Virus record (IMG/VR): IMGVR_UViG_3300025536_000005 | Span: 1-38,668 of that record | DNA length: 38,668 nt | Origin: a virus | Strand: one strand, 5' to 3' | Part shown: in pieces, positions 9,557-23,690 of the stretch | Layout of the letters: the number at the start of each line of letters is the position of its first letter | How positions within the stretch are numbered: position 1 is the stretch's first letter | Notes under the pieces: model-generated | Databases searched by the model: none | Told to the model about the DNA's origin: nothing | The model's input: the letters and a program-made list of their open reading frames with translations, nothing else | Position numbers and translations under genes: made by a program

Positions 9557-10788
9557 GCAACCGCCTCCGTCGAATGGTTCATCAACGGCGCGTCGTCACG
9601 GATGCGGTTGCGTGCGAGCTCGGCGTACTCGGGACTCAGCTCACAGCCGATGAACGAACGGTTGTGTCGAAGGGCGACCATGCCCGTCGTTCCTGATCCT
9701 GCAAAGGGGTCAAGCACCGTGTCGCCTTCGGCCGATCCCGCCAGCACACACGGCTCAATCAGGTCGGGTGGGAACGTGGCGAAGTGTGCGCCGCTGAATG
9801 GCTTGGTGCTGACAGTCCAGACGGAGCGCTTGTTGCGCTTCTCGAGCGCGCCGATTTCTGCGAGCCCGGCCTTGGTTCGGTGCCGCTCGTCGCCGGCCGT
9901 GTACGCGTCGGCGTACTTGCTGCGGTCCATGTTGCCGGGGCCATCAGGAAAGTTGGCCGGTTCCTTGATCGCCTCCGCGTCATAGAAGTACCGGCGCGAC
10001 TTGGAGAGCAGAAAGATGTACTCGTGCGCCTTGGTGCAGCGGTCCTCGACGGACTCGGGCATGGGGTTTGGCTTGTGCCAGATGATGTCTTGACGCACGT
10101 ACCAGCCGGTTTCCGTCGGGATCACCTTCGCCTCGCGGCGACCTGCAAGCGCGCAATCGATGCAGATGCGGTGCCCGTTTCGGATGGGCCAGAGGTCGGC
10201 GCGCATCTCTGTTTCGCATCCGCAGCACGTGGCAAATCCAGCGCGCAGGGCGAATGCGACCAACCAGGGGATCCCGATCAAGTCTTTCGGCTTCGACCCC
10301 GCGACCGGCGGACGCGGCCGAAGCGATGCTGCCTGGGCCTTCTGAACGGCTGCGGGATTTGAGAGCCGCGACTTGTCCCAGCCTTCGTCGCTGCCCTTCT
10401 GCCGAGCGTTGTACGAGTCGCCAAGGTTCAGCCAGACCGTTCCATCGTCGCGCAGCACACGGCGCACCTCGCGGAACACATCGACGACCGCTGCCACAAA
10501 CTCGTCGGGAGTGGGCTCGATGCCGATCTGCTGATCTATGCGAGTGGCCCCGCACTTGATGCAGGCCGAGCGCTCTCCACGCGTGACACGGCCGGCGAAT
10601 GACGCCTTGGCGTCGTGATCCGGCTTGACGATGGTGTGACCACATTCGGCGTCGCCACCATCCCATTCGGCCGTGCCGTAGTCGCGCAGCCCGAAGTACG
10701 GCGGGCTCGTCACGCACGTCTGCACCGACTGGTCGGCGAGCGTCTTCATCTGCTCGATGCAGTCGCCGGTGAGGATGCGCCAGGTCAT
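9553..10788 (-). CDS. DNA methyltransferase, beta-class (motif IV SPPY before motif I FAGSGTT); N4-C or N6-A
   Basis: VTSPPYFGLRDYG near the N-terminus, DIIWHKPNPMPES in the middle, and DPFAGSGTTG near the C-terminus. Confidence 0.9.
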   Translation of the reverse strand: MTWRILTGDCIEQMKTLADQSVQTCVTSPPYFGLRDYGTAEWDGGDAECGHTIVKPDHDAKASFAGRVTRGERSACIKCGATRIDQQIGIEPTPDEFVAAVVDVFREVRRVLRDDGTVWLNLGDSYNARQKGSDEGWDKSRLSNPAAVQKAQAASLRPRPPVAGSKPKDLIGIPWLVAFALRAGFATCCGCETEMRADLWPIRNGHRICIDCALAGRREAKVIPTETGWYVRQDIIWHKPNPMPESVEDRCTKAHEYIFLLSKSRRYFYDAEAIKEPANFPDGPGNMDRSKYADAYTAGDERHRTKAGLAEIGALEKRNKRSVWTVSTKPFSGAHFATFPPDLIEPCVLAGSAEGDTVLDPFAGSGTTGMVALRHNRSFIGCELSPEYAELARNRIRDDAPLMNHSTEAVA

Positions 10789-11405
10789 GCCGCCACCAGA
10801 TGCGACCAGGCGCGTCCTACACGAATGCGCGCAACATGTCCGGCGGAAAGTCCATATCGATCGGCGAGAGTCTCCGTCGGCTCGTCTGACTTGATGATCT
10901 CCCGCGCCTGCGCCTCGCTGATCTTCGCAATCGGATGGGCCTCGCCAGTCCGGGGCCAGTTCTCTTGCGCGGCGCGCATGATCTCTCCGATCTCAAGGCG
11001 GCGCTCCGCATGGTCTGGCGAGTGCGAGAAACAGAACTTCAACCCCGTGACCGGATCGCGTCGGCAGCCGTTGACCGAGCACTTGCGCGGAGGCCGAAGC
11101 GCGACGTTCATGCGGCCGAACTCGTTACGAATGGCCGCCCGTGCCGTGGCCGGGTTCGCGTAGCCCATCGCCTCCCAAACGGCTTCCGCGATCTCGGGAA
11201 TGTTGTGGCCCTGCGCGTAGGCTTCGACCACCTGAACGCGGCGAAGGTCTGTCCACTTGGATCGCTTGCCGTCCGATCGTCCCGGCTTGCGCACGACTGC
11301 CGAGAGTTCTACCTTGATCAACTCGCCGTCGCAATGGCGGCACCGCCGGTCGCCGGTGTAGACCGTGAGAGATCCGCAGGACTGGCAGGATGCTCGCTCG
11401 ATCAC
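10785..11405 (-). CDS. Zn-ribbon / HTH DNA-binding protein (possible transcription regulator)
   Basis: CQSCG...CRHCDG at the N-terminus. C-terminal KISEAQAREIIKSDEPTETLADRYGLSAGHVARIRVGRAWSHL is HTH-like. Confidence 0.65.
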   Translation of the reverse strand: MIERASCQSCGSLTVYTGDRRCRHCDGELIKVELSAVVRKPGRSDGKRSKWTDLRRVQVVEAYAQGHNIPEIAEAVWEAMGYANPATARAAIRNEFGRMNVALRPPRKCSVNGCRRDPVTGLKFCFSHSPDHAERRLEIGEIMRAAQENWPRTGEAHPIAKISEAQAREIIKSDEPTETLADRYGLSAGHVARIRVGRAWSHLVAA

Positions 11406-12189: not shown

Positions 12190-12318
12190 ACGCGCGCCAT
12201 ACCCGCGCCCACTTTCAGGCGCTTTTCGTCGCTTCTTGATGCGGCCGGATTCGGTGCTGAATCGCAGGCGGGAAGCGGGTTTACTGATGGGCGACGAGCG
12301 TGGGCCGGATGCGCTGAA

Positions 12319-12365
12319 AGGCGCTCATAATCCCTAGGTCGCAGGTTCGAGTCCTGCCCGGCCCA
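12319..12365 (+). other. attP core: 3' portion of a tRNA with CAU anticodon (Met or Ile2), from the anticodon loop to the discriminator base
   Basis: CTCATAA anticodon loop (12324-12330), AGGTC variable region, T-arm GCAGG-TTCGAGT-CCTGC, acceptor 3' strand CCGGCCC plus A. No D-arm and no complete anticodon stem. Lies 66 nt from the 3' end of int. Confidence 0.7.
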
Positions 12366-12430: not shown

Positions 12431-13504
12431 TCATACCACGGACAAAGCCTCGGCAATCGCTTTTGCGGGGTCGAAGTCCACGCCGCGCTCCAAGTCTGCG
12501 AAGACGTGCGCGTAGGTGTCGAGCGTCATGGTCGGCGCGTGACCCAGCTGGGCCGCGACGTAGGTGACGGGCTCGCCGGCATGGATCAAGAGGCTTGCGA
12601 ACGAATGGCGCAGCGTGTACGGGGTCGCTGTGATCCCGGCATCCCTCGCCGCGGGCGCGAAGATTCTGCGCGTCCAGTTCTGATAGTCGGTGTCGCGCCA
12701 CGGCTCCCCGTCGAAGCGCGGGAACAGCAGCCCGCGCCGCCCCGTCGCCAGCATCCACTCGCGCAGCTCCGATCCGAGCGGGGCCAGTAGGTCGACAGAT
12801 CGCACCTGCCGCGTCTTGGTTGCCTTGATGCGGCCGTTGGATACCGCCTGCTCGATCAGCAGGGTTTTCTTCTTGACGTGCTGGTCGGTCAGCGCCAAGG
12901 CTTCGCCCGGTCGGAGTCCGGCATAGGCGAGTAGGCGCGTCAAGACTTGATCCTCCGGGCGATCCATCTGGCGAACGATCGCTTCGACCTGCGCCGGGGC
13001 CAGTGGCCTCACTGACGGTTTCGGATCGGCGGTCGGCATCGGGATCGACGCTGCCTGATTGCCCCGGACGTATCCCCATTCGATTCCTCGGGCCAGAATC
13101 GACCGTAAGAGTGACAGCGCCCTGCGGCGCCCATCCGCGCTCACGCCTTGACGCTTCAACGTCGCCAGCCAATCCTCGATTACCGGAGCCGTCACCCGCA
13201 CGACCGGCGTTGTCCCCAGATACGGATTGATGTGCAGGTTCCACGTTCGCACGTAGCGGTTGCAGGTCGCAGGCTCGCGGTTCTCCCAGCGGCGGGTCTT
13301 GCACTCGTCGGCCAGCACTCCGAGCGGTTTCTTGCCAGCGTCGATCTGCGCAAGCTCCCCCATCTGCCGAGCATGAGAGACGTGCGCCGCCCATGCGCTC
13401 GCCATCGGCTTCTTGTCGAAGCTGCGTTGGCGCAGGTTGCCCGACTCGTCGCGCCACCTAACTCGCCACCTTCCCGAGGGCAAACGTTTGGGCTGCGGGG
13501 TCAC
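12431..13504 (-). CDS. int: Tyrosine integrase
   Basis: 357 aa carrying RPGEALAL, LRHSFAS, LGH and TYAHV (the R..HxxR..Y catalytic pattern). Adjacent to the tRNA fragment and xis. Confidence 0.9.
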   Translation of the reverse strand: MTPQPKRLPSGRWRVRWRDESGNLRQRSFDKKPMASAWAAHVSHARQMGELAQIDAGKKPLGVLADECKTRRWENREPATCNRYVRTWNLHINPYLGTTPVVRVTAPVIEDWLATLKRQGVSADGRRRALSLLRSILARGIEWGYVRGNQAASIPMPTADPKPSVRPLAPAQVEAIVRQMDRPEDQVLTRLLAYAGLRPGEALALTDQHVKKKTLLIEQAVSNGRIKATKTRQVRSVDLLAPLGSELREWMLATGRRGLLFPRFDGEPWRDTDYQNWTRRIFAPAARDAGITATPYTLRHSFASLLIHAGEPVTYVAAQLGHAPTMTLDTYAHVFADLERGVDFDPAKAIAEALSVV

Positions 13505-13715
13505 GCGGCAAATCTACCTTCTTGCGGCGGTCTGTCAAGTGAGACACCTTGCGCGACTCGATCCATGCCAGGGCGTCGTCCGGGTCGATGCGCCATCCGT
13601 TGCCGATCTTCGCCGCCGGCAACTTGCCCTCCCCGATCTCATGGCGCACGGTTTCCTCGCGGATCTTGAGCTTGGCCGCGAGATCTTTGACCGTCATGTA
13701 GTCGGGGACGCTCAC
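13458..13715 (-). CDS. xis: Excisionase-family HTH DNA-binding protein
   Basis: MTVKDLAAKLKIREETVRHEIGEGKLPAAKIGNGWRIDPDDALAWIE is typical of the MerR-like Xis family. Directly upstream of int, overlapping it by 47 nt. Confidence 0.7.
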   Translation of the reverse strand: MSVPDYMTVKDLAAKLKIREETVRHEIGEGKLPAAKIGNGWRIDPDDALAWIESRKVSHLTDRRKKVDLPRDPAAQTFALGKVAS

Positions 13716-13915
13716 CCCTCGGCCCTCCCTTTGGATGGGTCAAACAGTTCGGTTTTCTTTGTGTCGATGCGTCCTTTGCGGCGGCAGATTTTGCGCTTCA
13801 TTCGGGCGGTGGCTGACTTGCGGGTCAGGCCGTATGCGAACAGCCCCTCAAACCCGAACCGCGCATACGCCTCCCAGCCGATGATGATTCGCTTGGTTTC
13901 GATGCGATACATCAC
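13712..13915 (-). CDS. Hypothetical basic 67-aa protein
   Basis: Start overlaps the upstream stop (GTGATG). GTGA overlap with xis. Confidence 0.55.
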   Translation of the reverse strand: MMYRIETKRIIIGWEAYARFGFEGLFAYGLTRKSATARMKRKICRRKGRIDTKKTELFDPSKGRAEG

Positions 13916-14736
13916 TCACTCCCTTCGGAGAGGTAGTTACGGGCGGCGGCGGCATCACGCTCCAAGTCGGCAAGCACCATCGCATCCACACCGTCGCGTT
14001 CCCACACCGGATCGACCGCCGCACGTTCAAGGCAGGCGCTCGCCGATGCTTCCAGTTCCCTTAGTAGTTGGTTGGCTTGATCGGGGTTTGGTTTATCGAC
14101 TTCGGCTACGCCTACGTCCGGCGTCCCTGTCGCGTTCCCTTCGTCGGGGTTTGCTCGCGTGGCGGTTCGGATTGTGACTTCGACCGGCTCCATGAAGTTG
14201 AACACTGACCCGCCCGGGCCAGCCGCGCCCAAGTCCCACTCGCCGAGTCCCGCGAGATTTGGGTCGCCTTGGATTCCGCCTAGTACGAGCTGACTCCCGT
14301 GCTGGTCGCTCTCGTGATCCATGCGCTCCGCGAGAAACGTCACCGCCACGCGAGAGTCGTCGGCAGGGGTCACCACTTCGGACGCGCGACCATAATCCTT
14401 TCCGTTTGCTGCCCCACCCTCTGGGAGGGGTTCGGGGGAGGGTGTGTCGATGGGTTCACGGTTCTCTGGGTGTCCGGTGTCCAGCGGGAGACTGCGAATC
14501 GTGATCTCGACTTGGCCCATTTCCTCCGCGAAGCGCAGGGTGTCCAGTCGGCGTTCGTCGGCCTCGATCACTGCCTCGGCGTAGTGGCGGTTCGATCCGT
14601 CTCCGTAGCGGCGAAGGACTGCATTCACGATCCCGCCGTTGAAGCGCACGACCGGATTCAACGGATCAACGTCTTTCAAGTCTGGGCGAGTGGCTTCGCC
14701 GCCTGTCACCTTGTCATTCGGGATCGCGTCAGTCAT
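13912..14736 (-). CDS. Hypothetical acidic protein (274 aa)
   Basis: Start moved to ATG 14736 (MTDAIPNDK), preceded by AAAGGAAC. 8-nt ATGACTGA overlap with the upstream gene. Confidence 0.65.
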   Translation of the reverse strand: MTDAIPNDKVTGGEATRPDLKDVDPLNPVVRFNGGIVNAVLRRYGDGSNRHYAEAVIEADERRLDTLRFAEEMGQVEITIRSLPLDTGHPENREPIDTPSPEPLPEGGAANGKDYGRASEVVTPADDSRVAVTFLAERMDHESDQHGSQLVLGGIQGDPNLAGLGEWDLGAAGPGGSVFNFMEPVEVTIRTATRANPDEGNATGTPDVGVAEVDKPNPDQANQLLRELEASASACLERAAVDPVWERDGVDAMVLADLERDAAAARNYLSEGSE

Positions 14737-14905
14737 TGGGGGTTCCTTTCTTGGTGGCGGCGAACTGGCGCTCGACTCGCTTTCCGCACTTAGGACAGGT
14801 CGGGAAGTCGGGCCGTCCGTTGAAGTAGTCGTGGATCGTGTTTGCCCAGCGGACTTCTTCGGGGGTGATCTCCACACAGCACTTTTCGCAGACGTAGTTC
14901 CTCAT
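14729..14905 (-). CDS. Zn-ribbon protein (58 aa)
   Basis: MRNYVCEKCC...CPKCGKRVERQFAATKKGTPND. ATGA overlap at the start. Confidence 0.6.
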   Translation of the reverse strand: MRNYVCEKCCVEITPEEVRWANTIHDYFNGRPDFPTCPKCGKRVERQFAATKKGTPND

Positions 14906-15180
14906 GCGTCCTTCCCTTCTGTGGCCGCGTCTTCGTCGAAGTACCGCTTCGACCAGTCTGGTTCGGTGAAGCCACGCTCCAACGATCCGACCAATTCCTT
15001 GAAGTTCTTGCGCCCGATCTGTTTCGCCAGCGAACGGAGCGTCAGCCGCCCTTTGTGGCAAAACTCAACTTGGCCATGCTCCATCAGCCGAGCGAAGCGG
15101 TAAACGTCCGTGACGCCGACAATCTTGATCGTCAGCACCGGCTCGCCGAACTCGTTTTGTGTGACGCGCTTTTCGATCAC
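14902..15180 (-). CDS. Hypothetical 92-aa protein
   Basis: GTG start in a GTGA overlap (VIEKRVTQNEF...). GC3-rich. Confidence 0.55.
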   Translation of the reverse strand: MIEKRVTQNEFGEPVLTIKIVGVTDVYRFARLMEHGQVEFCHKGRLTLRSLAKQIGRKNFKELVGSLERGFTEPDWSKRYFDEDAATEGKDA

Positions 15181-15497
15181 GACGCCTTCCCTTCTGTGGG
15201 TGGATTTGATGTGGTGGCGGCAAGCGGCGTCCATCCGGACGGCTGCTCGTCGTAAGTGCCGAGGCCATACGGAGTCACCGGCCAGCGGCGAACGATCTCT
15301 TCCTTACCTGCATCCGTCGCGCTGATGATCTGCTTGTCGTGGTGAATCGTTGCCCAACCCAATCGCTCAAGCTCGCGAGCGGCCAGCCGGTCATCTTGGC
15401 TTCGAATGTGCGTCCAGCCGTACTTGTGCTGCGCAATGGCCCAAAGCAACTCGGCCATTGCCTCGGTGAACTCGATGACTTCTTCAAGGCCGCTCAC
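15177..15497 (-). CDS. Hypothetical 106-aa protein
   Basis: GTG start in a GTGA overlap (VSGLEEVIEFTEAM...). The N-terminal extension of the track ORF is Arg-rich junk. Confidence 0.55.
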   Translation of the reverse strand: MSGLEEVIEFTEAMAELLWAIAQHKYGWTHIRSQDDRLAARELERLGWATIHHDKQIISATDAGKEEIVRRWPVTPYGLGTYDEQPSGWTPLAATTSNPPTEGKAS

Positions 15498-16333
15498 GAC
15501 CCGCCCCCTTCTGATTGCTCGGACGCAAGCGGGTTCGGGACGTTGCCCAGCCCGTAGCAAGTCGTGCAGGCGTTCTTCCATGTGCGGCCCAGGCCTATTG
15601 CATCTGGGTATCCGTCGCCGGCGCAATCGGGGCATGTGATGGTGGCGGCGACGGCTGTGCCGAACACGTCCTCGGCATCGGAAAGGAACCGGGCGCAAGC
15701 CTTGGAACCGTTTTCGTGCGCAGCGATGATGCGGCGAATCCAGATCGGCTCCGTTCCAAACTCGTCAGCAAGATCGGCGGCGGTCGGTGCGTCTTCGCCC
15801 TTGAAGTATCGCTCGGCAATTTGGGCCGTTAGACGGCGTGTCGGCTCCGAGTACCCGCGAGGATGGATCGGGTTTTCTTCGTCGCCGGTGTTGGACAGAC
15901 GATCTCCACCCTCCGCCGCTTCTGACCCCTCCGATACTTGGGGGTTGTTGGAGAGGGCGGCGGCGAGGTGGCGGAGTGCGTCTTCGTGCCGTTCGTGGGC
16001 CTTGCTCTGAATAGCCGTGCCCTCGTGATCGGCGCGAGCCTGTCGGAGTGCGTCGCGTGTCAGCACCACGGCCTCCGCCGCCCCCCGTAGCTCTGACTGC
16101 TGGGATTGGGTGTGGTTGATCCAGTGGCGGGCTTGTTCGTCAAGTACGCCGACAAGATCAACGGCTTCGTCTTCGTTCTCCGCATGAGCGACAACCTTGC
16201 GCGGTCGGAGCGTGACCTGCCACTCCGGGTCGTTTGGCAGCAGGATTGCGTAGTAGAACTCGCCTTCGACCAAACCGACGGGCTTGATCTTCGCCGCCTT
16301 GTCACCCTCGATGCGTTCGTTCTTCTCACTCAT
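15494..16333 (-). CDS. Hypothetical 279-aa protein with C-terminal DnaJ-type zinc finger (CPDCAGDG ... CTTCYGLG)
   Basis: Start MSEKNERIE at 16333 (ATGAGTGA overlap). Contains two CxxCxGxG motifs. Confidence 0.65.
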   Translation of the reverse strand: MSEKNERIEGDKAAKIKPVGLVEGEFYYAILLPNDPEWQVTLRPRKVVAHAENEDEAVDLVGVLDEQARHWINHTQSQQSELRGAAEAVVLTRDALRQARADHEGTAIQSKAHERHEDALRHLAAALSNNPQVSEGSEAAEGGDRLSNTGDEENPIHPRGYSEPTRRLTAQIAERYFKGEDAPTAADLADEFGTEPIWIRRIIAAHENGSKACARFLSDAEDVFGTAVAATITCPDCAGDGYPDAIGLGRTWKNACTTCYGLGNVPNPLASEQSEGGGS

Positions 16334-16514
16334 GGTCAGGCTCCCAAATCGGAATTGGCGAGACCAGAACCTTGACCACGGCATAGCGGCGAAGTCCTCG
16401 CTTGGACTTCTCGACGTAGTGGTGCGGCCCGTCTTTGTCGCCGCCAACGGCAAGCCAGCGGTTGTGTGCGCCTCTTGCGGTGAAGTGACGGCCGACGATC
16501 TCGGTTGTGTTCAC
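16326..16514 (-). CDS. Hypothetical 62-aa protein
   Basis: GTG start preceded by GGAGG. GTGA overlap with the upstream micro-ORF. Confidence 0.5.
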   Translation of the reverse strand: MNTTEIVGRHFTARGAHNRWLAVGGDKDGPHHYVEKSKRGLRRYAVVKVLVSPIPIWEPDHE

Positions 16515-16636
16515 GACTTGCCTCCAATCCAGAACACGGGCTTACGGTGGAGCAAACAGATCGCCCCGTCGCCAAACAGGAGCCACGCCATAAGACATTC
16601 GATGCAATGGGTTGGCTTGTACTCACTCACTCCCAT
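16511..16636 (-). CDS. Micro-ORF, 41 aa (MGVSEYKPTHCIECLMAWLLFGDGAICLLHRKPVFWIGGKS), not in the ORF track
   Basis: ATG at 16636 lies 10 nt upstream of the preceding stop. It ends in a GTGA overlap with the next gene. GC3 is higher than in the competing frame. Confidence 0.4.
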   Translation of the reverse strand: MGVSEYKPTHCIECLMAWLLFGDGAICLLHRKPVFWIGGKS

Positions 16637-16805
16637 CACCTGCTTCTGGGGTGGCGGCGAGCTTTTCGACCTCACGGGAAAGCCGTCCGATCTCGTTGTG
16701 CATCGCCCTCATGACTTGCCACGCGGCGTACTTCCATGAGTCGTCGTCAGACTGGTTCGTCCAGCCGAGTGTGTCGATTGCGTTCTGCAACTGGTTACTC
16801 ATCAT
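16623..16805 (-). CDS. Hypothetical 60-aa helical protein
   Basis: MMSNQLQNAIDTLGW...REVEKLAATPEAGDGSE. The start overlaps the upstream TAA. Confidence 0.55.
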   Translation of the reverse strand: MMSNQLQNAIDTLGWTNQSDDDSWKYAAWQVMRAMHNEIGRLSREVEKLAATPEAGDGSE

Positions 16806-17196
16806 CCCCGTCCTCTCTGGTGGTGGGGTTGGCGGCGAGGGCTTTGGCGTAGGCGGCTTCCATCGCCAGTTCTTCTTGTGTCGGTTCTGCTCCGTCGATC
16901 TTCCTCGCGACGGCGCGAAGGGCGATTGCAGCGAAGTCGGTGCTGACCAAGCCAAGGCCGTCGGGGTGCTTGAGTCCGTCTGCGACCGTCCGCAAACGAT
17001 TCGCCGCATCCCGCCCCCGTTCTTCTGCTTGGGATTGGATGCGGGCTGCCTGTGTGTCGATGAAGGCGATTGCAGCTTTCGCCGCGTCCTCTGCGGCCTC
17101 TGGCGGCGCACCGCACATGAAAACGAACTCGCCGTTGCTGAAAACCGAGCCGTTCTCGATGGTCAGGTTCAACCCCGTCTGTGTGTTGGGGGTCAT
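16795..17196 (-). CDS. Hypothetical 133-aa protein
   Basis: Start MTPNTQTGL in an ATGA overlap. GC3-rich. Confidence 0.6.
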   Translation of the reverse strand: MTPNTQTGLNLTIENGSVFSNGEFVFMCGAPPEAAEDAAKAAIAFIDTQAARIQSQAEERGRDAANRLRTVADGLKHPDGLGLVSTDFAAIALRAVARKIDGAEPTQEELAMEAAYAKALAANPTTREDGDDE

Positions 17197-18212
17197 TGGT
17201 TCTCTCCGTTCTTGGGATTGGCGGCGAAGATGTCGGCCAAATCTTCGGCCAAATCTTCGATGTCCGTGTAATGCACGTCGCTCAATCTGGGCCTTCGCAA
17301 GCACCATCCGTCGCCTGTTCGCAAAATCGTCGCCTTCACACCATCGTTCCCTGCGGGTTGGGTCACGTACTGCTCGGTGCAGTTGTCGATGAGGGTTTTT
17401 AGCTCGGCGGCGAAGTCCCCCGCGATGTTCCCGCAGCGATCTAGGGCGCGGTCGTACTCGCTCCACGGTCGCGGCTTGGGTGCGCGTCGCCAATCCGCCG
17501 CTAACCGCTCCAACCGTTCACGAAACATGTCCAGCTCAAAGATCGTTCCGGTTGGCTTCGGGCCTTCTGGGGTGGGGTTGGTGGCGGCGGGGGGATTCAG
17601 CTTTCGTGTGAGGGTCAAAATCTGTTCCACGTTCAATCGCCGCGTCGTTCGAGAAACGTTGTCGGGAGCCTCGCGCACGTACTCATTGGCCAACGCTTCG
17701 GCCAACATGCACAAATGCAAAACGTCCAATTTCTCCGCCGCCACATCACCCCTTTCCCCTTCGGAGGAGGCTTCTAGGGCTTGGGTGAGCGTCGGGGCAT
17801 TTGCGAACTCGGACACCGCGTAGGCGTCGTCATCGCACTCCGGATACAGCAGTACACCGCCGTCCAGATATTCAACCTTGAACCCCGCGCCGTCCGTTCT
17901 GTGTGGCTCGGCGGGAGTCTCGGCCACCCGCGCCGCCAACTCATCAATCCTCCGCCGCTCATCTGCTCTTGCTTGTTGCTTGACCTGATCGAGCGCGTGA
18001 ACGATCCATCGAGCGTTTGCGAGGCCGCAGTTGACGTAGCCACGGGGAGCAAGCGTGATCGTGCCCACACGGTCGTCCAGGGCTTCGTCGCCACTTCCGA
18101 AGCGCCACGTTGTACCGCCGATGTGGTGGGCGGCGAAGTGGTCGCCTTCAACGTCCAGTTCTCGGCTTTCGGGGGTGTTGGCTTTCACAAAGTCATTCGA
18201 TGGGGTGGTCAT
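17193..18212 (-). CDS. Hypothetical 339-aa protein (possibly a fusion of two ancestral small genes)
   Basis: Long GC3-rich frame with a GAGGA SD. An internal boundary-box copy sits at 17561-17600. Confidence 0.7.
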   Translation of the reverse strand: MTTPSNDFVKANTPESRELDVEGDHFAAHHIGGTTWRFGSGDEALDDRVGTITLAPRGYVNCGLANARWIVHALDQVKQQARADERRRIDELAARVAETPAEPHRTDGAGFKVEYLDGGVLLYPECDDDAYAVSEFANAPTLTQALEASSEGERGDVAAEKLDVLHLCMLAEALANEYVREAPDNVSRTTRRLNVEQILTLTRKLNPPAATNPTPEGPKPTGTIFELDMFRERLERLAADWRRAPKPRPWSEYDRALDRCGNIAGDFAAELKTLIDNCTEQYVTQPAGNDGVKATILRTGDGWCLRRPRLSDVHYTDIEDLAEDLADIFAANPKNGENQ

Positions 18213-18215
18213 CGC

Positions 18216-18389
18216 TCAGTCCTCGCGGTCGTCGTAGTCAGGCTCGATGTACTGGAAGTCACAGCTCTCGTCCTCGCACTTGCCGGCGTCGTCTATGTAG
18301 TCGCCGCACTTGGGGCAGACTTCGGGATCGGGTGGGCCTTGGGTTTTCCATGCGTCGTAGGAGGCGGGCATACGGATGGGGTCGCTCAT
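18216..18389 (-). CDS. Acidic Zn-ribbon-like micro-protein, 57 aa (MSDPIRMPASYDAWKTQGPPDPEVCPKCGDYIDDAGKCEDESCDFQYIEPDYDDRED), not in the ORF track
   Basis: AAAGGAAGC SD with very high GC3. It overlaps the GC3-poor tail of 18259..18699. Confidence 0.6.
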   Translation of the reverse strand: MSDPIRMPASYDAWKTQGPPDPEVCPKCGDYIDDAGKCEDESCDFQYIEPDYDDRED

Positions 18390-18699
18390 TGGTTGCTTCC
18401 TTTAGTTGGGCGGCGAGGGATTCCAGCCTTTGGTATGTGTAGTGGTAGGTCGCGTACTCAGCGCCCTTGGCGTTCAAGTCAAGCTCGCGTTCCTTCGCCG
18501 CCGCCGCTTCAACCATCTCCACAACTTCTTCAAGCGTCTGCTCTCGGATGGATTGGATGGTGGCGGCGAGGTTGTTCAGGTCGCGGGAAACGCCAGCGAG
18601 GTCAATCGCCTGCGGTTGCTTCGCCGCTACATCCACAACTGCTGAAAGCCTTTTCAGTTCGTCGGCAATCCGGTCGCCGCTCAATGCCTTCTCACTCAT
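18259..18699 (-). CDS. Hypothetical helical protein; the last ~43 codons look like read-through after loss of the ancestral stop
   Basis: MSEKALSGD.... The frame is GC3-rich up to ...LAAQLKEATNE, followed by a CGA-rich, Arg-rich tail. Confidence 0.6.
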   Translation of the reverse strand: MSEKALSGDRIADELKRLSAVVDVAAKQPQAIDLAGVSRDLNNLAATIQSIREQTLEEVVEMVEAAAAKERELDLNAKGAEYATYHYTYQRLESLAAQLKEATNERPHPYARLLRRMENPRPTRSRSLPQVRRLHRRRRQVRGREL

Positions 18700-18998
18700 G
18701 CCTCAGGGGTTCCTTTCTGGGTGGTGACGCAGTCGGGCGAACAGTGAAAAGTCCAATGTCCGCGTGGGCATATCCCCGTCAGCGACAGGAAGTTTTCAAG
18801 CGTCAACTTTCCCGCGAAAACATCGGACGCCTCTTGAAGTTGGGCGCGAAGTGTGCGACCGTCGAAGTCACTCCAATCGCCACGCCACGCGGAGCCGAGC
18901 AAGCACAAAGCCTCTTGCCCCGCCGCCACAACTTCCACATCCAAGTCCTTCACCACTTCCACACCATCTGACATTTCCTTACCTCCTGGGGTGGTCAT
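18696..18998 (-). CDS. Hypothetical 100-aa protein (alternative start MSDGVEV at 18974)
   Basis: ATGA overlaps at both ends. GGAGGTAAGGAA lies upstream of the second ATG. Confidence 0.55.
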   Translation of the reverse strand: MTTPGGKEMSDGVEVVKDLDVEVVAAGQEALCLLGSAWRGDWSDFDGRTLRAQLQEASDVFAGKLTLENFLSLTGICPRGHWTFHCSPDCVTTQKGTPEA

Positions 18999-19636
18999 GC
19001 CGCAGTCCTCGATTCCTCGGCCGGCTGGATTCGGTCACGAAGCTCGGCCAGGGCTTCGTCACGGTTGGTGGGGTCGACGGGTTCGGCGAGCTCAAGTTCC
19101 TCGCGCGCGACTACAGCTGTAGAAGTTGCAGTGATGGGTAAAGAATCTTTTGGTTGTGGAGATTCGTAAGACGAAGACGAAGTAGAAGACGAAGGGCTTG
19201 GATTCTGCTGGCCGTTTGCTTCAAGCGAATCCGAAGCACTGCTACCCCCTCTGCTTGCAGCCGATGCCTGTCCGCCCTTGCGTCCGGCTTCGGCTTTTGC
19301 CGCTCTGTAAGCGATTTGTTTGGCCCGCTCTTCCTCCATGCGGGGATTGACGTACTTGTCTGGAAGTGCAAAAAATTTCGGCAAAAGCTCTGGCCAAATG
19401 CGTGAGAATTTGTGGGGGCTTATTCCCAAAATCCTTCGAATCTTTTTCTCATCAAGCGGAATTCCGATGTTGATCCAGGCATAGCCGAGCAGCGTGATGT
19501 AAGCGCCGCGTTCTTCGAGGGTCATGTCTGCCGTGTCATTCAAGAAGTCTCCGAAGTAGAACTGGACTGCGGGTGCCTCGTACACGCTCACGCCCCCCGC
19601 TCGAACGGCCATGTCGCGCCCTTGGATGAGTTGCAC
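18995..19636 (-). CDS. DUF1376-family protein (phage replication-associated / replisome-organizer-like)
   Basis: FYFGDFLNDTADMTLEERGAYITLLGYAW matches the DUF1376 signature. Codon usage is atypically AT-rich, with a Ser-rich linker. Confidence 0.65.
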   Translation of the reverse strand: MQLIQGRDMAVRAGGVSVYEAPAVQFYFGDFLNDTADMTLEERGAYITLLGYAWINIGIPLDEKKIRRILGISPHKFSRIWPELLPKFFALPDKYVNPRMEEERAKQIAYRAAKAEAGRKGGQASAASRGGSSASDSLEANGQQNPSPSSSTSSSSYESPQPKDSLPITATSTAVVAREELELAEPVDPTNRDEALAELRDRIQPAEESRTAA

Positions 19637-20100
19637 GACTTGCAGGCTGGCCGCAAGTTCGCTGGCCAGAGCGACCCGCCGGCGGCGATCGGCTTCACGT
19701 GGTCAATCGCCTCGTACGGCTTCTTGCGGCAGATCCAGCAGAGTCCGCCGTAGAACGCCACCCGCCACGCGATCTGCTCCGGCGTGGCGAATCCCGACGC
19801 CGCCTCAATGCGGCTCTTGCGGTTGAGTTGCCAACAGCCGAATCCGATCTTGACGAACCGCATGCTCACCACGAAGTGCCGTTTGTTTTCGCGAATCAAT
19901 CGCGTGCGCACAAGCCGACGGGTGAGCTCGTCCAGGTCGTCGCCGCGCGTCCAGTCGCGAACCACCGTGTGCGGTACGCGGCTCTCGCGCCTTTGCGAGC
20001 ACCACGCGACCATACGGAGATAGAGATTCGCCGCGTCTTCACCAACGTCCAGAACCTCTGGGCGTTCAAAGAACTGATCGTCCACCTTGAACCAGCCCAC
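19588..20100 (-). CDS. HNH endonuclease domain protein
   Basis: C-terminal CWICRKKPYEAIDHVKPIAAGGSLWPANLRPACKSCNSSKG. Confidence 0.8.
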   Translation of the reverse strand: MGWFKVDDQFFERPEVLDVGEDAANLYLRMVAWCSQRRESRVPHTVVRDWTRGDDLDELTRRLVRTRLIRENKRHFVVSMRFVKIGFGCWQLNRKSRIEAASGFATPEQIAWRVAFYGGLCWICRKKPYEAIDHVKPIAAGGSLWPANLRPACKSCNSSKGATWPFERGA

Positions 20101-20102
20101 GC

Positions 20103-20459
20103 CTACGCCCCCATGCCCCGCGACTCGTACGACGTCTGTGCTCGGAGTAGCGATTGTCCGATGGTCGCGCGAGCGATCAGCGACTTCTGTGCGAGTGCCA
20201 GACCCTCGTAGGCGGCCTCCGCTTGGACGAACTCGCGGTAGAGGTCGGTGTTCTCGATCTGCAGGAGCGCCTGCGCGTTGCGGGCGTCTGAGTTCTTGCC
20301 GTCGGCTTCGAGTAGTGCCTGCGCCCGCGCTACGTCGCGCTCGCGCTTGAGGCCGAAGTAGGCGGTGGCTGCTCCCGAAAGCTCGCGTTCGTTTTCTTCG
20401 AGCTGCGATTCGACTTCGGCCAGACGTTCCATGACCTGCTGCGGAGAGAGAAGGGTCAC
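20103..20459 (-). CDS. Hypothetical coiled-coil protein (118 aa)
   Basis: GC3-rich. ATGA overlap upstream. Confidence 0.6.
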   Translation of the reverse strand: MTLLSPQQVMERLAEVESQLEENERELSGAATAYFGLKRERDVARAQALLEADGKNSDARNAQALLQIENTDLYREFVQAEAAYEGLALAQKSLIARATIGQSLLRAQTSYESRGMGA

Positions 20460-20689
20460 GCGCGCACCGGCTTTTCGTGCCTGACGTCGAGGGTCACTTC
20501 ACCGGCCAGGACTTCGCCGGGGTCGAGCCGGTCGCCGCTCCGGCGCTCACGCACGACCACGCTGCCGTCGATCGCCGCGTAGTTCTCGATGAAGCAGCCG
20601 AAGCACCAGAGCTCGGGGTCGCCGTCGTTGCCGGGTAGCCAGTCGATCACGGCGTCGCGGTTGCAGTTGTTGCAGGTGGCGCTCGTCAT
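20456..20689 (-). CDS. Zn-ribbon protein (77 aa; CNNCN ... CFGCF)
   Basis: ATGA overlaps at both ends. Confidence 0.6.
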   Translation of the reverse strand: MTSATCNNCNRDAVIDWLPGNDGDPELWCFGCFIENYAAIDGSVVVRERRSGDRLDPGEVLAGEVTLDVRHEKPVRA

Positions 20690-21498
20690 GTGCGCACCGC
20701 CAACGACTGGACCTGCTCGATCTTCACGCCGGGGATTTCGAGCTGCGACGGATCGCTGTGCTGACGGATCACCTTGGCGATCGCCTTCTCGTCAACGATC
20801 AGGTACTCGCGGGGCACTTGCATCGGATCGGTGATCGTGTGCTTCCACGTCTTGCGCACCGATGCGCTTGCGCCGTTGTCGGCCTTGATGGTCGACGCCT
20901 GCTTGAGCGGTTCGACGGCCGGCGCGACGGTCTTGACTTCGGCGGCGACCGCGAGGTTGCGTTCTGCGACCTTGGCCGCGGCCTCGTTGCCGGACGCCTC
21001 GGCCTCTGCCAATTGCTGCGCGGCTTCGGCTGCGATCTTGCGCTGACGCTCGTCTTCGAGTTCCTGCTGACGCTGACGCTCGGCTTCGATGCGAGCGTTC
21101 TCTGCGTCGATCTCGGCCTGCACCTTGGCGCGGTAGTCGAGGATCTTCGGCTCGAGCACGGCGCGCGCGTCGGTCAGCGGCTGGATGATCGCCTTGAAGT
21201 AGGCGTCGATCTCCTTGCCCCACTTGATGATCGGGGCTTTGAGTTCCTTGCGCCGCGCCTCGGCCTCTTTTGCGAACCGCGTCAGGTCGCCGATGCACTC
21301 GGCGGCTTCGGTCGCGTCGGCTTCGGTGGCGATCTCCATCGTGTGTGCGGCTTCGATGTACGGGTTGATGGTCACCGCGCGTTCGGCGCGTTCGTGCTCG
21401 AGCTTCTGCGGCTCGACGATCTCGACCTGGGCCGGCGGCGGCGGAGCTGCCGCGGCCGTGGCGCTTGCCGCGCCTGCTTTCTGGAATTCGTCGGTCAT
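20686..21498 (-). CDS. Siphovirus Gp157-like coiled-coil protein (270 aa)
   Basis: Start MTDEFQKAG at 21498 in an ATGA overlap. The C-terminus VRKTWKHTITDPMQVPREYLIVDEKAIAKVIRQ...IPGVKIEQVQSLAVRT resembles the Gp157 family end, from memory. The upstream 220 aa of track ORF 20686..22161 are out-of-frame junk. Confidence 0.5.
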   Translation of the reverse strand: MTDEFQKAGAASATAAAAPPPPAQVEIVEPQKLEHERAERAVTINPYIEAAHTMEIATEADATEAAECIGDLTRFAKEAEARRKELKAPIIKWGKEIDAYFKAIIQPLTDARAVLEPKILDYRAKVQAEIDAENARIEAERQRQQELEDERQRKIAAEAAQQLAEAEASGNEAAAKVAERNLAVAAEVKTVAPAVEPLKQASTIKADNGASASVRKTWKHTITDPMQVPREYLIVDEKAIAKVIRQHSDPSQLEIPGVKIEQVQSLAVRT

Positions 21499-22376
21499 GC
21501 TGCAACCTCCACGGGTGTCGGCGCAGAGATCGCGAAGTTGCGGTACTGGCCATTGAGGGAAACGGTCAGGTCGAAGGGCTTGCCGACAAGTGCGGCCAGC
21601 GATCCTCCTACGGGCGGCTCGATGCCGCCGCAGATGTGCTCGACGAACTGCTTGTAGTCGGGTCGCCCCGGTTCGAGCCAGAGCTTTTCGCCTGCGTCCT
21701 GTTTGTTGGGGTTGGTGTTGGCGACGCCAGCGATCAGGACGATCTTGTCCTTGCCCTTGGCGTTCACCCATGAGGCGTCGCGGACGGTGGCCGAGAATGG
21801 AGCGCCTTCGGGCAGGACGCCCATCTGTAGGTTGTCCTCGGGTCGCGAACCACCACCGAGGCTGTCGCCGTCGTGAGGGATCTCTTCGGCAGCGGTCGCC
21901 TCGAAGCCGGCCAGCTTCACAACGAACCCGAGCGGGCCGCGAAGGGCTCGCGAGATCGCGCGGGTCTGGGCCATGCCGAGCAGCGCGTAGTCGGGGCGAG
22001 AGTTCCACGTCGACTCGTCGCGCGAGCAGATCGCATCGGCGCGACCGATCACGCGGCCGTCCATCGTCCTGGCCTCGGCTGTTGCCATCCAGCCGTTGCC
22101 GATATTCTCGGTGTGCGTTACCACGCCCGACACGCCGACCATTGAGCCGAGCGTCTGCCACCCCTCGACGTTGACGTATTCCTTGCGCTGGATGTTGGCG
22201 ATCATGCCGCCGCCCCGTAACACGTCGGTCAGAGCTGACGCGACTTCCTTCGCCTTCTCAAGTGACTCGACTGGATCGGTGGCGAACAAGTTGCCCGCGG
22301 GTGCCACGGCTACTGCCGTGCCTACCTCGACTTCCGGCATTTCGACCACTTCAGCATCTACGATTGTTTCATTCAT
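21495..22376 (-). CDS. Putative ssDNA-annealing / recombination protein (ERF/Rad52-like signature)
   Basis: KEYVNVEGWQTLG...DYALLGMAQTRAISRALRGPLGF resembles the conserved SSAP C-terminal helix. Sits next to the Gp157-like gene. Confidence 0.4.
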   Translation of the reverse strand: MNETIVDAEVVEMPEVEVGTAVAVAPAGNLFATDPVESLEKAKEVASALTDVLRGGGMIANIQRKEYVNVEGWQTLGSMVGVSGVVTHTENIGNGWMATAEARTMDGRVIGRADAICSRDESTWNSRPDYALLGMAQTRAISRALRGPLGFVVKLAGFEATAAEEIPHDGDSLGGGSRPEDNLQMGVLPEGAPFSATVRDASWVNAKGKDKIVLIAGVANTNPNKQDAGEKLWLEPGRPDYKQFVEHICGGIEPPVGGSLAALVGKPFDLTVSLNGQYRNFAISAPTPVEVAA

Positions 22377-22421
22377 TTTCGAGTCCTCCTACGACTCGGG
22401 GGTGGACAGAGAAGCCGCGAC

Positions 22422-22829
22422 TTAGCTCGCGGTTTTCTCGTTTGTGGGGAACTGGAAGATCTCTGCGCTCGGCGCGTCGACGGCGTACAGGCCGATGCGC
22501 TCGCGCTGCTGCTGGAACGCCATGCCACGCGCGAACGCCTCGGCGATTGCCGCTTCGTGCTCGTCGAGCGAGACGGAGAAGTTGGTGCCGCTCGGTCGGC
22601 TCGGCCCCGACCGAGCGGCGTCGTTCCGCCATGAACGATTTGTGATCAAGCGCTGGGGGGCGCTCTTGATCGCGGCTATTCCGTTGGCCGCAAGTTGACC
22701 CGCCGCGCCATGTTGGTCGTGCGCGACGGGGATTGCGCGAGACAAGGTCAGACCTCGCACGATTTTGGGGAGCGCGTGGAAAAGGCTGTAGCCGATGCCG
22801 ACGATCGCGAATGCCTCGATGGGGGTCAT
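22422..22829 (-). CDS. Hypothetical protein with N-terminal TM segment (135 aa)
   Basis: MTPIEAFAIVGIGYSLFHALPKIV. ATGA overlap upstream. Confidence 0.55.
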   Translation of the reverse strand: MTPIEAFAIVGIGYSLFHALPKIVRGLTLSRAIPVAHDQHGAAGQLAANGIAAIKSAPQRLITNRSWRNDAARSGPSRPSGTNFSVSLDEHEAAIAEAFARGMAFQQQRERIGLYAVDAPSAEIFQFPTNEKTAS

Positions 22830-23484: not shown

Positions 23485-23690
23485 AACCGACCCCCGCTCT
23501 CGCGTAGGCCGAACTTGCGAGTGGCAATCTGCGCCAGCGTGGTCGGCGGGTTGCATGTGTCACACAACGTCCGACCGTCAACCTCTGACACTTCGTTTGC
23601 TCCGACCTCTTCGCCGCACTCGTCGCAGTCGATGTAGTCGGGGGCATCGTCGAGGAACGGCATCGCAACGCCTTCGGGGAAGTTGCTCAT
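23481..23690 (-). CDS. Zn-ribbon protein (69 aa; CDECG ... CDTCN)
   Basis: Start MSNFPEGV at 23690 in an ATGA overlap with the RHH gene stop. Confidence 0.6.
   Translation of the reverse strand: MSNFPEGVAMPFLDDAPDYIDCDECGEEVGANEVSEVDGRTLCDTCNPPTTLAQIATRKFGLRESGGRL

Follow-up and report, generated by a model that had tools for sequence, protein, structure and literature searches.

A block of small genes with similar coding tails

Why should about 15 small genes of unknown function, lying in a row on the minus strand of a temperate phage, end in coding tails of the same style? Within the window (the whole 38,668-nt stretch of DNA analysed; genome G+C 63%), most genes of this block carry such a short tail, which also holds the ribosome-binding site and the start codon of the next gene. 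A preliminary description of the locus had placed recurrent junctions of this kind between positions 14729 and 18998. The gene map has a minus-strand junction at each coordinate listed there, but the range was too short, the element going on down to 13709. The junctions discussed below are as follows, each tail being given up to its stop codon.

18987-18998, minus strand: start word of G2, ATGACCACCCCA (MTTP), repeated at the G5 start
18696-18735, minus strand: junction G2/G3, GTCACCACCCAGAAAGGAACCCCTGAGGCATGA; tail VTTQKGTPEA, without an LAA box; its AGAAAGGAACCCC is repeated at 14739-14751
18386-18417, minus strand: junction G3/G4, box CTCGCCGCCCAA, then CTAAAGGAAGC and ATGA; the upstream frame has no stop here
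17193-17228, minus strand: junction G5/G6, box TTCGCCGCCAAT, then CCCAAGAAC, GGAGAG and ATGA; tail FAANPKNGENQ
16803-16839, minus strand: junction G6/G7, box CTCGCCGCCAAC, spacer CCCACCACC, then AGAGAGGACGGGG and ATGATGA; tail LAANPTTREDGDDE
16623-16661, minus strand: junction G7/G8, box CTCGCCGCCACC (16650-16661), then CCAGAAGCAGG, ATG/GTG starts and TGA (16623-16625); tail LAATPEAGDGSE
16302-16335, minus strand: junction G9/G10 and the first 10 codons of G10, CCATGAGTGAGAAGAACGAACGCATCGAGGGTGA; its CATGAGTGAGAAG is repeated at 18688-18700
15494-15524, minus strand: junction G10/G11, GTCCGAGCAATCAGAAGGGGGCGGGTCGTGA; tail ..ASEQSEGGGS
15178-15224, minus strand: junction G11/G12, CTTGCCGCCACC ACATCAAATCCACCCACAGAAGGGAAGG CGTC GTGA; tail LAATTSNPPTEGKAS
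14734-14764, minus strand: junction G13/G14, box TTCGCCGCCACC (14753-14764), AGAAAGGAACCCC (14739-14751) and an ATGA-type G14 start with an 8-nt overlap
13910-13953, minus strand: junction G14/G15, GCCGCCGCCGCC..CCGAAGGGAGTGAGTGATG; tail AAAARNYLSEGSE; its GGGAGTGAGTGA is repeated at 16623-16634
13709-13740, minus strand: junction G15/xis, ACCCATCCAAAGGGAGGGCCGAGGGGTGAGCG; tail ..DPSKGRAEG, SD, GTGA overlap and first codons of the HTH_17 gene

One of the tails proposed earlier, LAAQLKEATNE, is wrong: in ORF 18259-18699 the frame continues as aat-gag across the ATGA and stops 131 nt later, within the next gene. The clustering of the box word YTCGCCGCC, that is [CT]TCGCCGCC, in a stretch of about 4 kb was borne out, as nine of its 12 minus-strand copies in the genome fall within 14764-18570. 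Every one of the 12 is in frame, being read xTC GCC GCC; six further copies lie on the plus strand, and by reading frame the word counts 18, 0 and 1. No copy was found in regulatory intergenic (operator) regions. The word CGCCGCCACC occurs five times inside the block and nowhere else. Likewise, the four pairs of 12- to 15-mers quoted in the preliminary description were all recovered where it had put them, together with a fifth 12-mer pair, ATGACCACCCCA at 18201-18212 and 18987-18998; most copies of these pairs stand at an equal offset from the start codon.

Tails compared with gene interiors

Could Ala-rich proteins, GCC codon bias and post-hoc choice of a motif account for this pattern? LAA is a common tripeptide, and with 227 exact same-strand repeats of 12 nt or more in the genome, words of this length often recur by chance. 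We nonetheless consider chance and composition an extremely improbable explanation, being contradicted by permutation, positional and interior-control tests. Among the 14 tails, LAA or AAT is found in four, AA in eight, TCGCCGCC in five and TCGCCGCCA in four. At the discovery level, the enrichment of the box in tails gave P<=0.0004 against random interior windows and persisted against codon shuffles (P<=0.0014). Across seven loci, 24 of 76 in-frame xTC GCC GCN words lie 8-18 codons before a stop (expected 7.1%, P=2.6e-10). Among junction windows of these loci whose flanking genes are non-homologous, 58 pairs had an exact word of 12 nt or longer in common and 20 pairs one of 14 nt or longer; interior controls gave 4-7 and 0-2, respectively. 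Five repeat pairs have both copies in junction windows of the present block, where about 0.13 would be expected by our own arithmetic from the repeat counts.

A second possibility, also raised in the preliminary description, is a shared peptide motif: many early proteins would carry an added [LF]AA[T/A], placed 9-15 residues before the C-terminus and read by some factor of host or phage (a protease, a chaperone or the ribosome tunnel, for instance). The peptide is indeed retained through some synonymous changes (GCT, GCA, CTT), it stands within a narrow range of distances from the C-terminus that peaks at 11, 13 and 14 residues, and it lies within tails that are disordered both by composition and in AF2 models. 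The strong codon-level bias speaks against it, since GCC-GCC is the codon pair in 65% of tail boxes defined by the peptide [LFIVM]AA but in 23% of those elsewhere (P=8e-6); the box is conserved at the DNA level, not at the peptide level alone. Moreover, several junction families lack LAA altogether (..NPSKGRAEG, ..VTTQKGTPEA and ..IWEPDHE), and the same tails are found on enzymes of known fold, a D12 methyltransferase and an RNA ligase, which suggests an add-on that goes with the position and not with the protein. We therefore hold a peptide signal to be quite unlikely.

Same junction DNA beside different genes in relatives

The metagenomic relatives L105/L106, L108, L110, L009 and L008 have pre-integrase blocks with the same tails, made of [LF]AA[T/A], a hydrophilic spacer, SD and stop/start. 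They are only a handful, mostly short-read metagenome contigs (Logan, MEGAHIT) in which mis-joins at common words are possible. Conservation of the boxes at the nucleotide level was found in them: junction stretches of 19-57 nt, 95-100% identical, adjoin otherwise unrelated genes, including those of an ASCH protein, a D12 methyltransferase and an RNA ligase. For example, G15, the D12 methyltransferase and two small ORFs have 19-32 identical nt in common. The 32 nt of junction G15/xis are 100% identical to the D12 methyltransferase tail (L105:5137-5168), and 27 nt of it are 100% identical to L110:12113-12139, the tail of a 51-aa gene before the RNA ligase gene; the proteins flanking this junction in the window, L105 and L110 are unrelated. 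The tail LAAT(T)SNPPTEGK is common to G11, the ASCH-domain protein and an unrelated 110-aa protein (DNA 89-97% identical): 35 nt of junction G11/G12 match the tail of the ASCH-domain gene of L110 at 97% and that of L105 gene 2088-2420 at 89%, and between the three proteins the match is confined to the tails. The ..SEQSEGGG tail of G10 recurs on P0005 (L108) and P0006 (L105/L106), with 18-21 nt of junction G10/G11 being 95-100% identical to theirs despite C-terminal halves that differ from each other and from that of G10. Junction G14/G15 matches L110:11700-11741 at 95% over 42 nt, but the proteins encoded by the gene bodies have 35% identity. The 21 nt at 16647-16667, in junction G7/G8, match the RNA-ligase gene tail of L110 at 95%, and the 17-mer CTCGCCGCCACCCCAGA is common to this junction and the tail of L108 gene 3406-3627. 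Junction G9/G10 is 97% identical to L108 and L110, and the sequence of junction G3/G4 is identical in L006 and L007.

Design of the translation start alone might also make tails alike. Each tail would then be shaped independently by an accessible G-poor region, the SD, the overlap and the 63% G+C, with LAA as the helix end before a disordered tail, so that the likeness would be convergence with no role in recombination. Several features agree with this, namely a position-specific C-rich, G-poor tract (40-49% C and 17-23% G at -36..-19 from the start) followed by a purine SD (87% purine and 1% T at -12..-7), the disorder-type composition of the tails and the depletion of GCG in tail boxes. In the low-confidence AF2 model of G6, the last helix is predicted to stop at the second Ala of LAA, with Asn-Pro next and tail residues 123-133 at pLDDT <50. 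In addition, in the more distant L009 tails of this style differ in sequence, and exact boxes are few. Convergence cannot, however, yield 27-57 nt at 95-100% identity between unrelated genes, including rare A-ending codons (ACA TCA AAT CCA). Predicted folding of the junctions is not reduced and is no different from that of gene interiors, GCC is favoured even among non-GCG codons, and the G11 model puts the box inside a disordered tail of 35 residues rather than where a helix ends. Start design alone thus appears unlikely, though less so than a peptide signal. A shared translational-coupling element, another role suggested earlier, holds in the ordinary sense of an SD and an overlapping stop/start at each junction, but no box-to-SD hairpin was found there. 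Nor are these overlaps and purine SD blocks peculiar to this stretch: 4-nt overlaps with purine SD also occur at 7602-11405 and 20103-23851 and are ordinary genome-wide.

Probable insertions, exchanges and fusions at junctions

Four further features bear on what happens at the junctions.

14902-15180, minus strand: G12, a 92-aa cassette with the direct repeat CCACAGAAGGGAAGG on both sides (15185-15199 and 14910-14924)
14692-14924, minus strand: exchanged block, comprising the SD/start part of junction G12/G13, the whole of G13, junction G13/G14 and the first 45 nt of G14
15912-15968, minus strand: fossil junction in G10, CTCGCCGCCGCC..GGAGGGGTCAGAAG (LAAALSNNPQVSEGSEAAE)
17569-17589, minus strand: internal box in G5, CGCCGCCACCAACCCCACCCC; PPAATNPTPEGPK

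L110 has no G12, and a single hybrid junction, whose left half matches the G11 tail and right half the G12 tail, leads straight into its G13 homologue. Judged by this comparison, G12 is an insertion or deletion with the 15-mer repeat at either end. G13 itself (14729-14905, minus strand) encodes a 58-aa zinc-ribbon-like protein, and the 233 nt at 14692-14924 match L110:10766-10998 with one mismatch. Identity collapses on either side, the downstream neighbour being 35% identical in protein and the upstream genes unrelated; on the alignment, this is a recently exchanged block. Its left edge is CCACAGAAGGGAAGG and its right edge falls on GGCGGCGAAG, an inverted copy of the box.

The boxes inside two larger genes, G10 and G5, correspond, in the alignments, to gene ends or homology starts in relatives. 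The G10 fossil junction is 98% identical to L105/L106 over 57 nt and 100% to L108 over 32 nt, and two homologues terminate here, P0007 (129 aa) with ..LAAALSNPSEGGQG and L009 gene 11714-12070 (118 aa) with ..TAALLSDPNGKGGDDE. Homology of G5 begins at or just past its internal box, at residue 206 for P0003 (L009) and residue 219 for P0002 (L008), with no match found for its N-terminal 205 residues; 21 nt of the box are 95% identical to the L108 tail FAAFAATNPTPRGETDR. Mosaic breakpoints at junctions, which the preliminary description had put forward for checking, were detected on alignment with relatives, as seven of 13 high-identity patches touch positions -30..-1 of a start (2.8 expected, P=0.008). 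About half of the patches and many HSP ends fall within genes, hence exchange is not confined to junctions.

A cis-acting DNA or RNA site for a phage or host protein could also mark these places, whether stoperator-like, like the cluster K start-associated sequences or a Chi-like hotspot (plus strand GGTGGCGGCGAR). The orientation and clustering of the box word, the restriction of CGCCGCCACC to the block and the end of the 233-nt block at an inverted box would fit such a site. Against it stand a conserved core of merely about 9-11 nt, a box-to-start spacing that varies from 25 to 44 nt, several junction sequences with no single consensus, the confinement of the word to one reading frame, its absence from operator regions and the lack of any nameable binding protein. 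A protein-binding site is in our view rather improbable, on a par with the peptide signal.

The tails are probably in-frame junction linkers that couple translation and offer short homology for cassette exchange, a mechanism inferred from its end products. The stretch 13709-18998 would be a minus-strand array of small gene cassettes, consecutive ones joined by in-frame linkers of about 30-50 nt. Each linker would comprise a C-rich box, usually YTC GCC GCC ACC/AAC, read [LF]AA[T/N]; a G-poor spacer whose codons give residues typical of disorder (P, T, N, Q, S, E, G, K); an SD made of purines only; and a stop that overlaps the start of the following gene, as ATGA, GTGA or more extensively. Since the start region of the next gene is supplied by the linker within the previous tail, a cassette between two linkers would be translationally coupled to its neighbours. 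Linkers that recur in direct orientation, within the genome and among co-circulating relatives, and that preserve the frame could serve as short homology; recombination at them would replace, delete, insert or fuse cassettes with expression kept intact, and repeated exchange may in turn maintain their likeness. They look like connectors at which genes swap, fuse or get lost. Breakpoints near gene ends would likewise result from random recombination followed by selection for junctions that work. Of the four roles proposed in the preliminary description, microhomology for cassette shuffling is the best supported, by identical junction DNA between unrelated genes, the indel at the 15-mer repeat and internal boxes that align with gene ends in relatives. 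The phage's own annealing protein invoked there is not established: none was identified in the window, where the only related match is to PHROG 'exonuclease', for 20686-21498.

Comparison with known systems

The SAS/ESAS of cluster K mycobacteriophages have one 13-bp consensus (GGGATAGGAGCCC) 3-7 bp before the start (Pope et al. 2011, PMC3203893). Like the present elements, they are limited to non-structural genes, keep one orientation, adjoin start codons, include the SD and accompany diverse gene families (PMC3203893); the present ones are longer, form several sequence families and reach 25-45 nt into the upstream gene. Cluster A stoperators, too, are short, asymmetric repeats that point one way with respect to transcription and often lie close to where genes end, but the present core is too short and degenerate and has no known repressor link. 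The preliminary description had drawn a likeness to both 'in concept, though not in sequence'; the SAS consensus is absent here and the stoperator consensus is not enriched.

Ordinary translational coupling, with overlapping ATGA stop/start and internal SD, has its features at every junction, but alone it does not account for near-identical junction DNA of 20-57 nt between unrelated gene pairs. Integron cassettes with attC likewise are small, lack promoters, stand in arrays and carry at the 3' end a sequence associated with recombination. However, no attC-like imperfect inverted repeat or hairpin was found at the junctions, the sole integrase is a tRNA-type phage integrase, and exchange here would go by homology rather than being site-specific.

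Linker or boundary sequences at lambdoid module joints were reportedly described by Clark et al. in 2001. The present linkers make a dense series at nearly each junction of one block, are translated as tails and have the common format box-spacer-SD-overlap. Both are conserved boundary sequences between unrelated genes, and the lambdoid ones, flanked by unrelated genes in different phages, were proposed as targets of homologous recombination (PMC2327257; PMC3974807).

The promoter-early stem-loops (PeSLs) of T4-type phages are short repeated regulatory sequences, all oriented alike, that lie among the small genes (mostly ORFans) of a hyperplastic region, and recombination between copies explains insertions, deletions and replacements among close relatives (Arbiol et al. 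2010, PMC2839356; Comeau et al. 2014, PMC4122927). The present linkers likewise recur in a single orientation at the boundaries of small genes, most of them ORFans. A PeSL lies between genes and combines a promoter with a terminator stem-loop, whereas neither promoter nor terminator was found in the present linkers, which provide SD and stop/start and keep the frame. By this comparison, the linkers resemble T4 PeSLs and lambdoid linker sequences but sit inside coding tails.

Genomic setting of the early gene block

The window represents the complete genome of a temperate phage, with nearly all genes on the minus strand. Its assembly is circularly closed, with an exact 127-nt terminal direct repeat (window 1-127 and 38542-38668) and a unique length of 38541 nt. 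Two other assemblies of this genome, L006 and L007 (one JGI contig and one ENA contig), are 100% identical to it over 12 kb and so give no signal of population-level variation. Among deposited phages (INPHARED) no DNA match was found, near or distant, and the capsid protein is only 53% identical to the best deposited phage record. The block under study lies between replication-type genes (DUF1376, HNH) and the excisionase/integrase pair, and comprises about fifteen consecutive genes, named G1 to G16, whose proteins match no Pfam or PHROG family at a useful E-value. The features discussed below are:

13709-18998, minus strand, block of small early genes
18259-18699, minus strand, G3
18216-18389, minus strand, G4, encoding a CxxC protein
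17193-18212, minus strand, G5
15185-15219, minus strand, tail of G11
14902-15180, minus strand, G12
14729-14905, minus strand, G13, zinc-ribbon-like
13709-13740, 32 nt preceding the excisionase gene
12302-12365, plus strand, tRNA-like sequence
20686-21498, exonuclease-like gene
21495-22376, upstream neighbour of the latter

The host is uncertain, because one protein of the window is labelled by NCBI as coming from a Sphingomonadales MAG, whereas the closest integrases (nearest 68%) belong to Actinomycetes and Solirubrobacterales MAGs. A related prophage (L012) sits in an Actinomycetes MAG, and the best named relatives of the capsid protein infect Sinorhizobium. The tRNA-like sequence adjoins the integrase gene and was recognized as an Rfam tRNA with 29 bits, at threshold, ARAGORN calling no tRNA there; it is probably an attP core that reproduces the 3' portion of a host tRNA. 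The integrases of the relatives are likewise followed by tRNA-derived sequence. The exonuclease-like gene matches a PHROG annotated 'exonuclease' (E=2e-18) and its neighbour only a family of unknown function; the two could form a phage recombination pair, and family matches identified no annealing protein in 20686-22376.

Sequence signature of the junctions

The preliminary description had proposed that successive genes of the block are joined by a recurrent kit made of a box read as LAA, a purine-rich Shine-Dalgarno (SD) block and an overlapping stop/start. The observation is confirmed, and it extends to a phage lineage. Every position at which a copy had been placed is a gene junction, the count of 9 out of 12 in-frame YTCGCCGCC words falling inside 14764-18570 is exact, and the four repeated 12-15-mers are present where they were quoted; a fifth pair, ATGACCACCCCA, marks the beginning of G2 and of G5. 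Words of this kind are not unusual as such: the genome contains 227 exact repeats of 12 nt or longer with both copies on one strand. Five pairs, however, have both copies in junction windows of the block, for about 0.13 expected, and mostly at an equal offset from the start codon. The enrichment of boxes in gene tails holds when compared with windows drawn at random from the interior of these genes (P<=0.0004) and survives codon shuffles (P<=0.0014) in a discovery-level test that scores every tripeptide or every 7-9-mer by how many tails contain it and retains the highest score. Moreover, 14 [LF]AA tripeptides are found in the 1952 codons of the block versus 13 in the other 9744 codons, and CGCCGCCACC has five copies in the block and none elsewhere in the genome.

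Along the minus strand, in the 5' to 3' direction, a junction comprises four successive parts: the box, usually xTC GCC GCC ACC or AAC; a T-poor, C-rich tract located about -36 to -13 from the next start (32-49% C, only 17-23% G); a purine block (36% A, 51% G and 1% T at positions -12 to -7 of 15 junctions); and the overlapping stop/start. Stop/start overlaps of 4, 8, 11 or 14 nt at 14 of the 15 junctions of 13709-18998, together with an SD-like purine block 5-12 nt before the start, identify them as translationally coupled junctions. Overlaps are common elsewhere in the genome too and, like the SD blocks, are present throughout the early genes; by themselves, the ATGA/GTGA overlaps and the purine SD therefore represent ordinary translational coupling.

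The tails are rich in Q, N, T, E, G, S, K and A and nearly devoid of C, M, W, V, Y and F, a composition of the disordered-protein type. In single-sequence AF2 models of low to moderate confidence, the last helix of G6 ends at the second Ala of LAA and is followed by a low-confidence tail, whereas G11 is folded up to residue 71 and has its box embedded in a disordered tail of 35 residues; a helix C-cap, which fits the former and not the latter, was thus discarded as a general explanation. Nor are the junctions less structured than gene interiors (MFE of -23.5 versus -24.4 kcal/mol, P=0.48). Pairing of the box with the SD to enforce coupling was rejected, as no consistent or recurrent hairpin was found at the junctions, and the Rfam 15 covariance models matched none of them, their sole match being the tRNA-like sequence.

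Alanine codons indicate at which level the box is conserved. Over the block (13912-18998, minus strand), 18 of the 45 Ala-Ala pairs are GCCGCC and 14 are GCGGCG; pairs using the same codon twice amount to 33/45 for 13.6 expected, versus 56/150 for 48 expected outside the block, and the boxes account only partly for this bias. Codon duplication by slippage was rejected as the source of GCCGCC, the excess being confined to Ala (P=0.06 for other doublets), and so was a GCSGC restriction or methylation word, since GCCGCC is enriched in a single reading frame. When boxes are defined by the peptide alone ([LFIVM]AA, 8-18 residues from the end), GCC-GCC is used in 65% of them versus 23% elsewhere (P=8e-6), and GCG is nearly absent; conservation therefore acts at the DNA level and not on the peptide alone. 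The [LF]AA anchor encoded by TCGCCGCC may still have a role as a peptide, and the box may also be a binding site.

Junction DNA shared with related phages

A search for homologues of G5, a full HMMER scan using G10 and contig look-ups led to five related early regions (L008, L009/L010/L012, L105/L106, L108 and L110), these relatives being few, short-read contigs whose joins are taken as assembled. A genome scan with the integrase returned one related prophage (L012, which corresponds to L009), the other hits being unrelated integrative elements; scans of viral contigs returned only distant relatives, without the box, and the metagenome scan distant fragments only.

In each related region, the excisionase or integrase gene is preceded by a block of small genes with the same tail format, as exemplified by the C-termini ESLAATQDTTK, LERLAATESDAPDE, GDFAATPERTDTRAE, NSLAATPERNKDE, KYFAATTNPSKGRAS and EKPAATPSPPTGEGE, each directly followed by the stop. 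In-frame xTC GCC GCN words located 8-18 codons before the stop amount to 24/76 for 7.1% expected (seven loci, P=2.6e-10). Compared with the relatives by short-word BLAST, the block is a patchwork of 18-233-nt stretches with 93-100% identity, set in a background that either is unrelated or shows about 35% protein identity. The 32 nt preceding the excisionase gene recur unchanged in the tail of a D12 methyltransferase gene of L105, and 27 of them in that of a 51-aa gene preceding an RNA ligase gene in L110. Similarly, the G11 tail resembles the ends of two other genes, with 97% identity for an ASCH-domain gene of L110 and 89% for an unrelated gene of L105 coding for 110 aa, and the G10 tail is also found on P0005 (L108) and P0006 (L105/L106), whose C-terminal halves differ from that of G10. 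Pairwise comparisons of proteins with common junction DNA confirmed that only the tails match. As in boundary or linker sequences, stretches of 19-35 nt with 89-100% identity thus join unrelated proteins.

Among 164 junctions, 58 pairs without homologous flanks share exact words of at least 12 nt versus 4-7 in interior controls, and 20 share words of at least 14 nt versus 0-2. Judged from their DNA, the junctions form a family of related sequences that recur inside a genome as well as among genomes, whichever genes they join; they contain the start region of the downstream gene and run, in frame, through tails of predicted disorder. Another junction family, tandemly repeated within one genome, is represented by GCGGGGAGGGGGAGTGA, found at three consecutive junctions in L110 (13185-14088) and L108 (3620-4529), with tails ending in GGEGE, SGEGE and TGEGE.

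Insertion or deletion of a gene, putative fusions, and breakpoints

In L110, a single junction, ctcgccgccacatcaaatccacccacagaagggaaggacgcATGA, leads into a gene with 100% identity to G13. In the window, the left half of this junction lies at the end of G11, followed by G12 and then by the right half before G13, and the 15-mer CCACAGAAGGGAAGG is present in two direct copies around G12. G12 is therefore an insertion or a deletion bounded by a 15-mer direct repeat. The 233-nt identity block covering G13 starts on the 15-mer that borders G12 and ends 45 nt into G14; its right edge (14692-14703) falls on GGCGGCGAAG, an inverted copy of the box, which is either a coincidence or a hint that the box core may be a preferred crossover point.

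Internal boxes were also found in larger genes. Residues 22-138 of G10 align with an entire 118-aa gene product of L009, ending in TAALLSDPNGKGGDDE, and residues 1-132 with the 129-aa P0007, ending in LAAALSNPSEGGQG; the internal LAAALSNNPQVSEGSEAAE of G10 (15912-15968) is 98% identical in DNA to P0006, the preceding sequence being different. G5 is chimeric: its residues 206-283 show 42% identity to P0003, a 280-aa protein of L009, and its residues 219-282 show 77% identity to the central part of P0002, a 539-aa protein of L008. Both homologies start at or just after an internal PPAATNPTPEGPK box; nothing before this box has a match, and no relatives were found for the rest of the protein. As internal boxes coincide with the ends or starts of homologues, the larger genes of the block seem to have arisen by fusion of cassettes across a linker or, conversely, those of the relatives by fission. 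The internal LAAT of G3 (18570) was rejected as a fossil junction, its L110 homologue ending about 8 residues out of register.

The preliminary description had also suggested testing whether mosaic breakpoints coincide with the boxes. In the alignments, 7 of the 13 high-identity patches touch positions -30 to -1 of a start for 2.8 expected (P=0.008), but about half of the patch ends are intragenic. Selection alone would likewise favour breakpoints near junctions.

Comparison with known systems

Conserved boundary sequences are known at the module joints of lambdoid phages. In integron cassette arrays, each cassette ends with an attC hairpin and an IntI-type integrase is present; at the junctions studied here there is no conserved inverted repeat or hairpin, and the integrase of the window adjoins a tRNA-like putative attP. 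The cluster A stoperator occurs as many copies of GGTGGMTGTCAAG in one orientation; two matches with at most two mismatches were found for 1.5 expected, neither of them in the block. Start-associated sequences (SAS) of cluster K phages have a 13-bp consensus, GGGATAGGAGCCC, located 3-7 bp before start codons (PMC3203893), for which no match with at most two mismatches was obtained. T4-type PeSLs are repeated promoter-terminator cassettes that mediate ORFan shuffling (PMC2839356; PMC4122927). The region 13400-19700 has two promoter-like sites (1.0 expected) and three terminator-like sites (7.8 expected), none of them at a junction, and no consistent hairpin was found at the junctions. PeSLs, lambdoid boundary sequences and SAS are the closest described systems; the junctions reported here differ from them in being translated and frame-keeping, in comprising several sequence families and in having coupling rather than transcription as their job.

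A proposed role in gene exchange

Among the roles suggested in the preliminary description, microhomology for cassette shuffling is the best supported, by the shared linkers and the G12 indel. We propose that the linkers, besides coupling translation, would serve as short homology for cassette exchange, deletion or fusion, and that exchange would in turn keep the linkers alike. It is rather unlikely, in our opinion, that this amounts to a dedicated cassette-exchange system, in which the in-frame box TCGCCGCC (LAA) and the SD/start word would be the two ends of a 'plug' acted on preferentially by the phage recombination functions (the exonuclease-like gene and its neighbour) or by a Chi-like host pathway. 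If it were so, the pre-integrase block would be a homology-driven analogue of an integron, where any gene between two linkers could be captured, expressed by coupling, fused or discarded.

Whether phage mosaicism results from random illegitimate joins sorted by selection or from homologous exchange at conserved boundaries is a long-standing question, and to our knowledge few conserved boundary sequences have been clearly documented. In the present accessory block, such a sequence is found at nearly all junctions; it is placed inside a coding tail, keeps the frame and includes the next ribosome-binding site, and in several related phages unrelated genes are joined by the same junction DNA. If exchange does occur at the linkers, the question becomes directly testable in this lineage, and the swapping, fusion and splitting of ORFan genes, enzymes and domains without loss of expression would be explained.

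Consequences for annotation

A short conserved C-terminus found on unrelated phage proteins may represent junction sequence and not a functional part. LAAQLKEATNE, initially given as a C-terminal tail, is not one, as the ORF of G3 passes that ATGA in another frame. G3 runs 131 nt into G4 past the ATGA junction (18386-18389), and this extension is Arg-rich and out-of-frame-looking; the read-through looks like the result of a 1-nt slip in the junction gcaaccaATGA. The junction sequence is identical in L006 and L007, where the gene caller used skipped G3. Outside the block, a 21-nt unit, AAGCCGCGCACACCGGCCAAG, is present twice, 3 nt apart, at 35966-36010 and encodes a KPRTPAK peptide repeat at the C-terminus of the gene 35957-36277.
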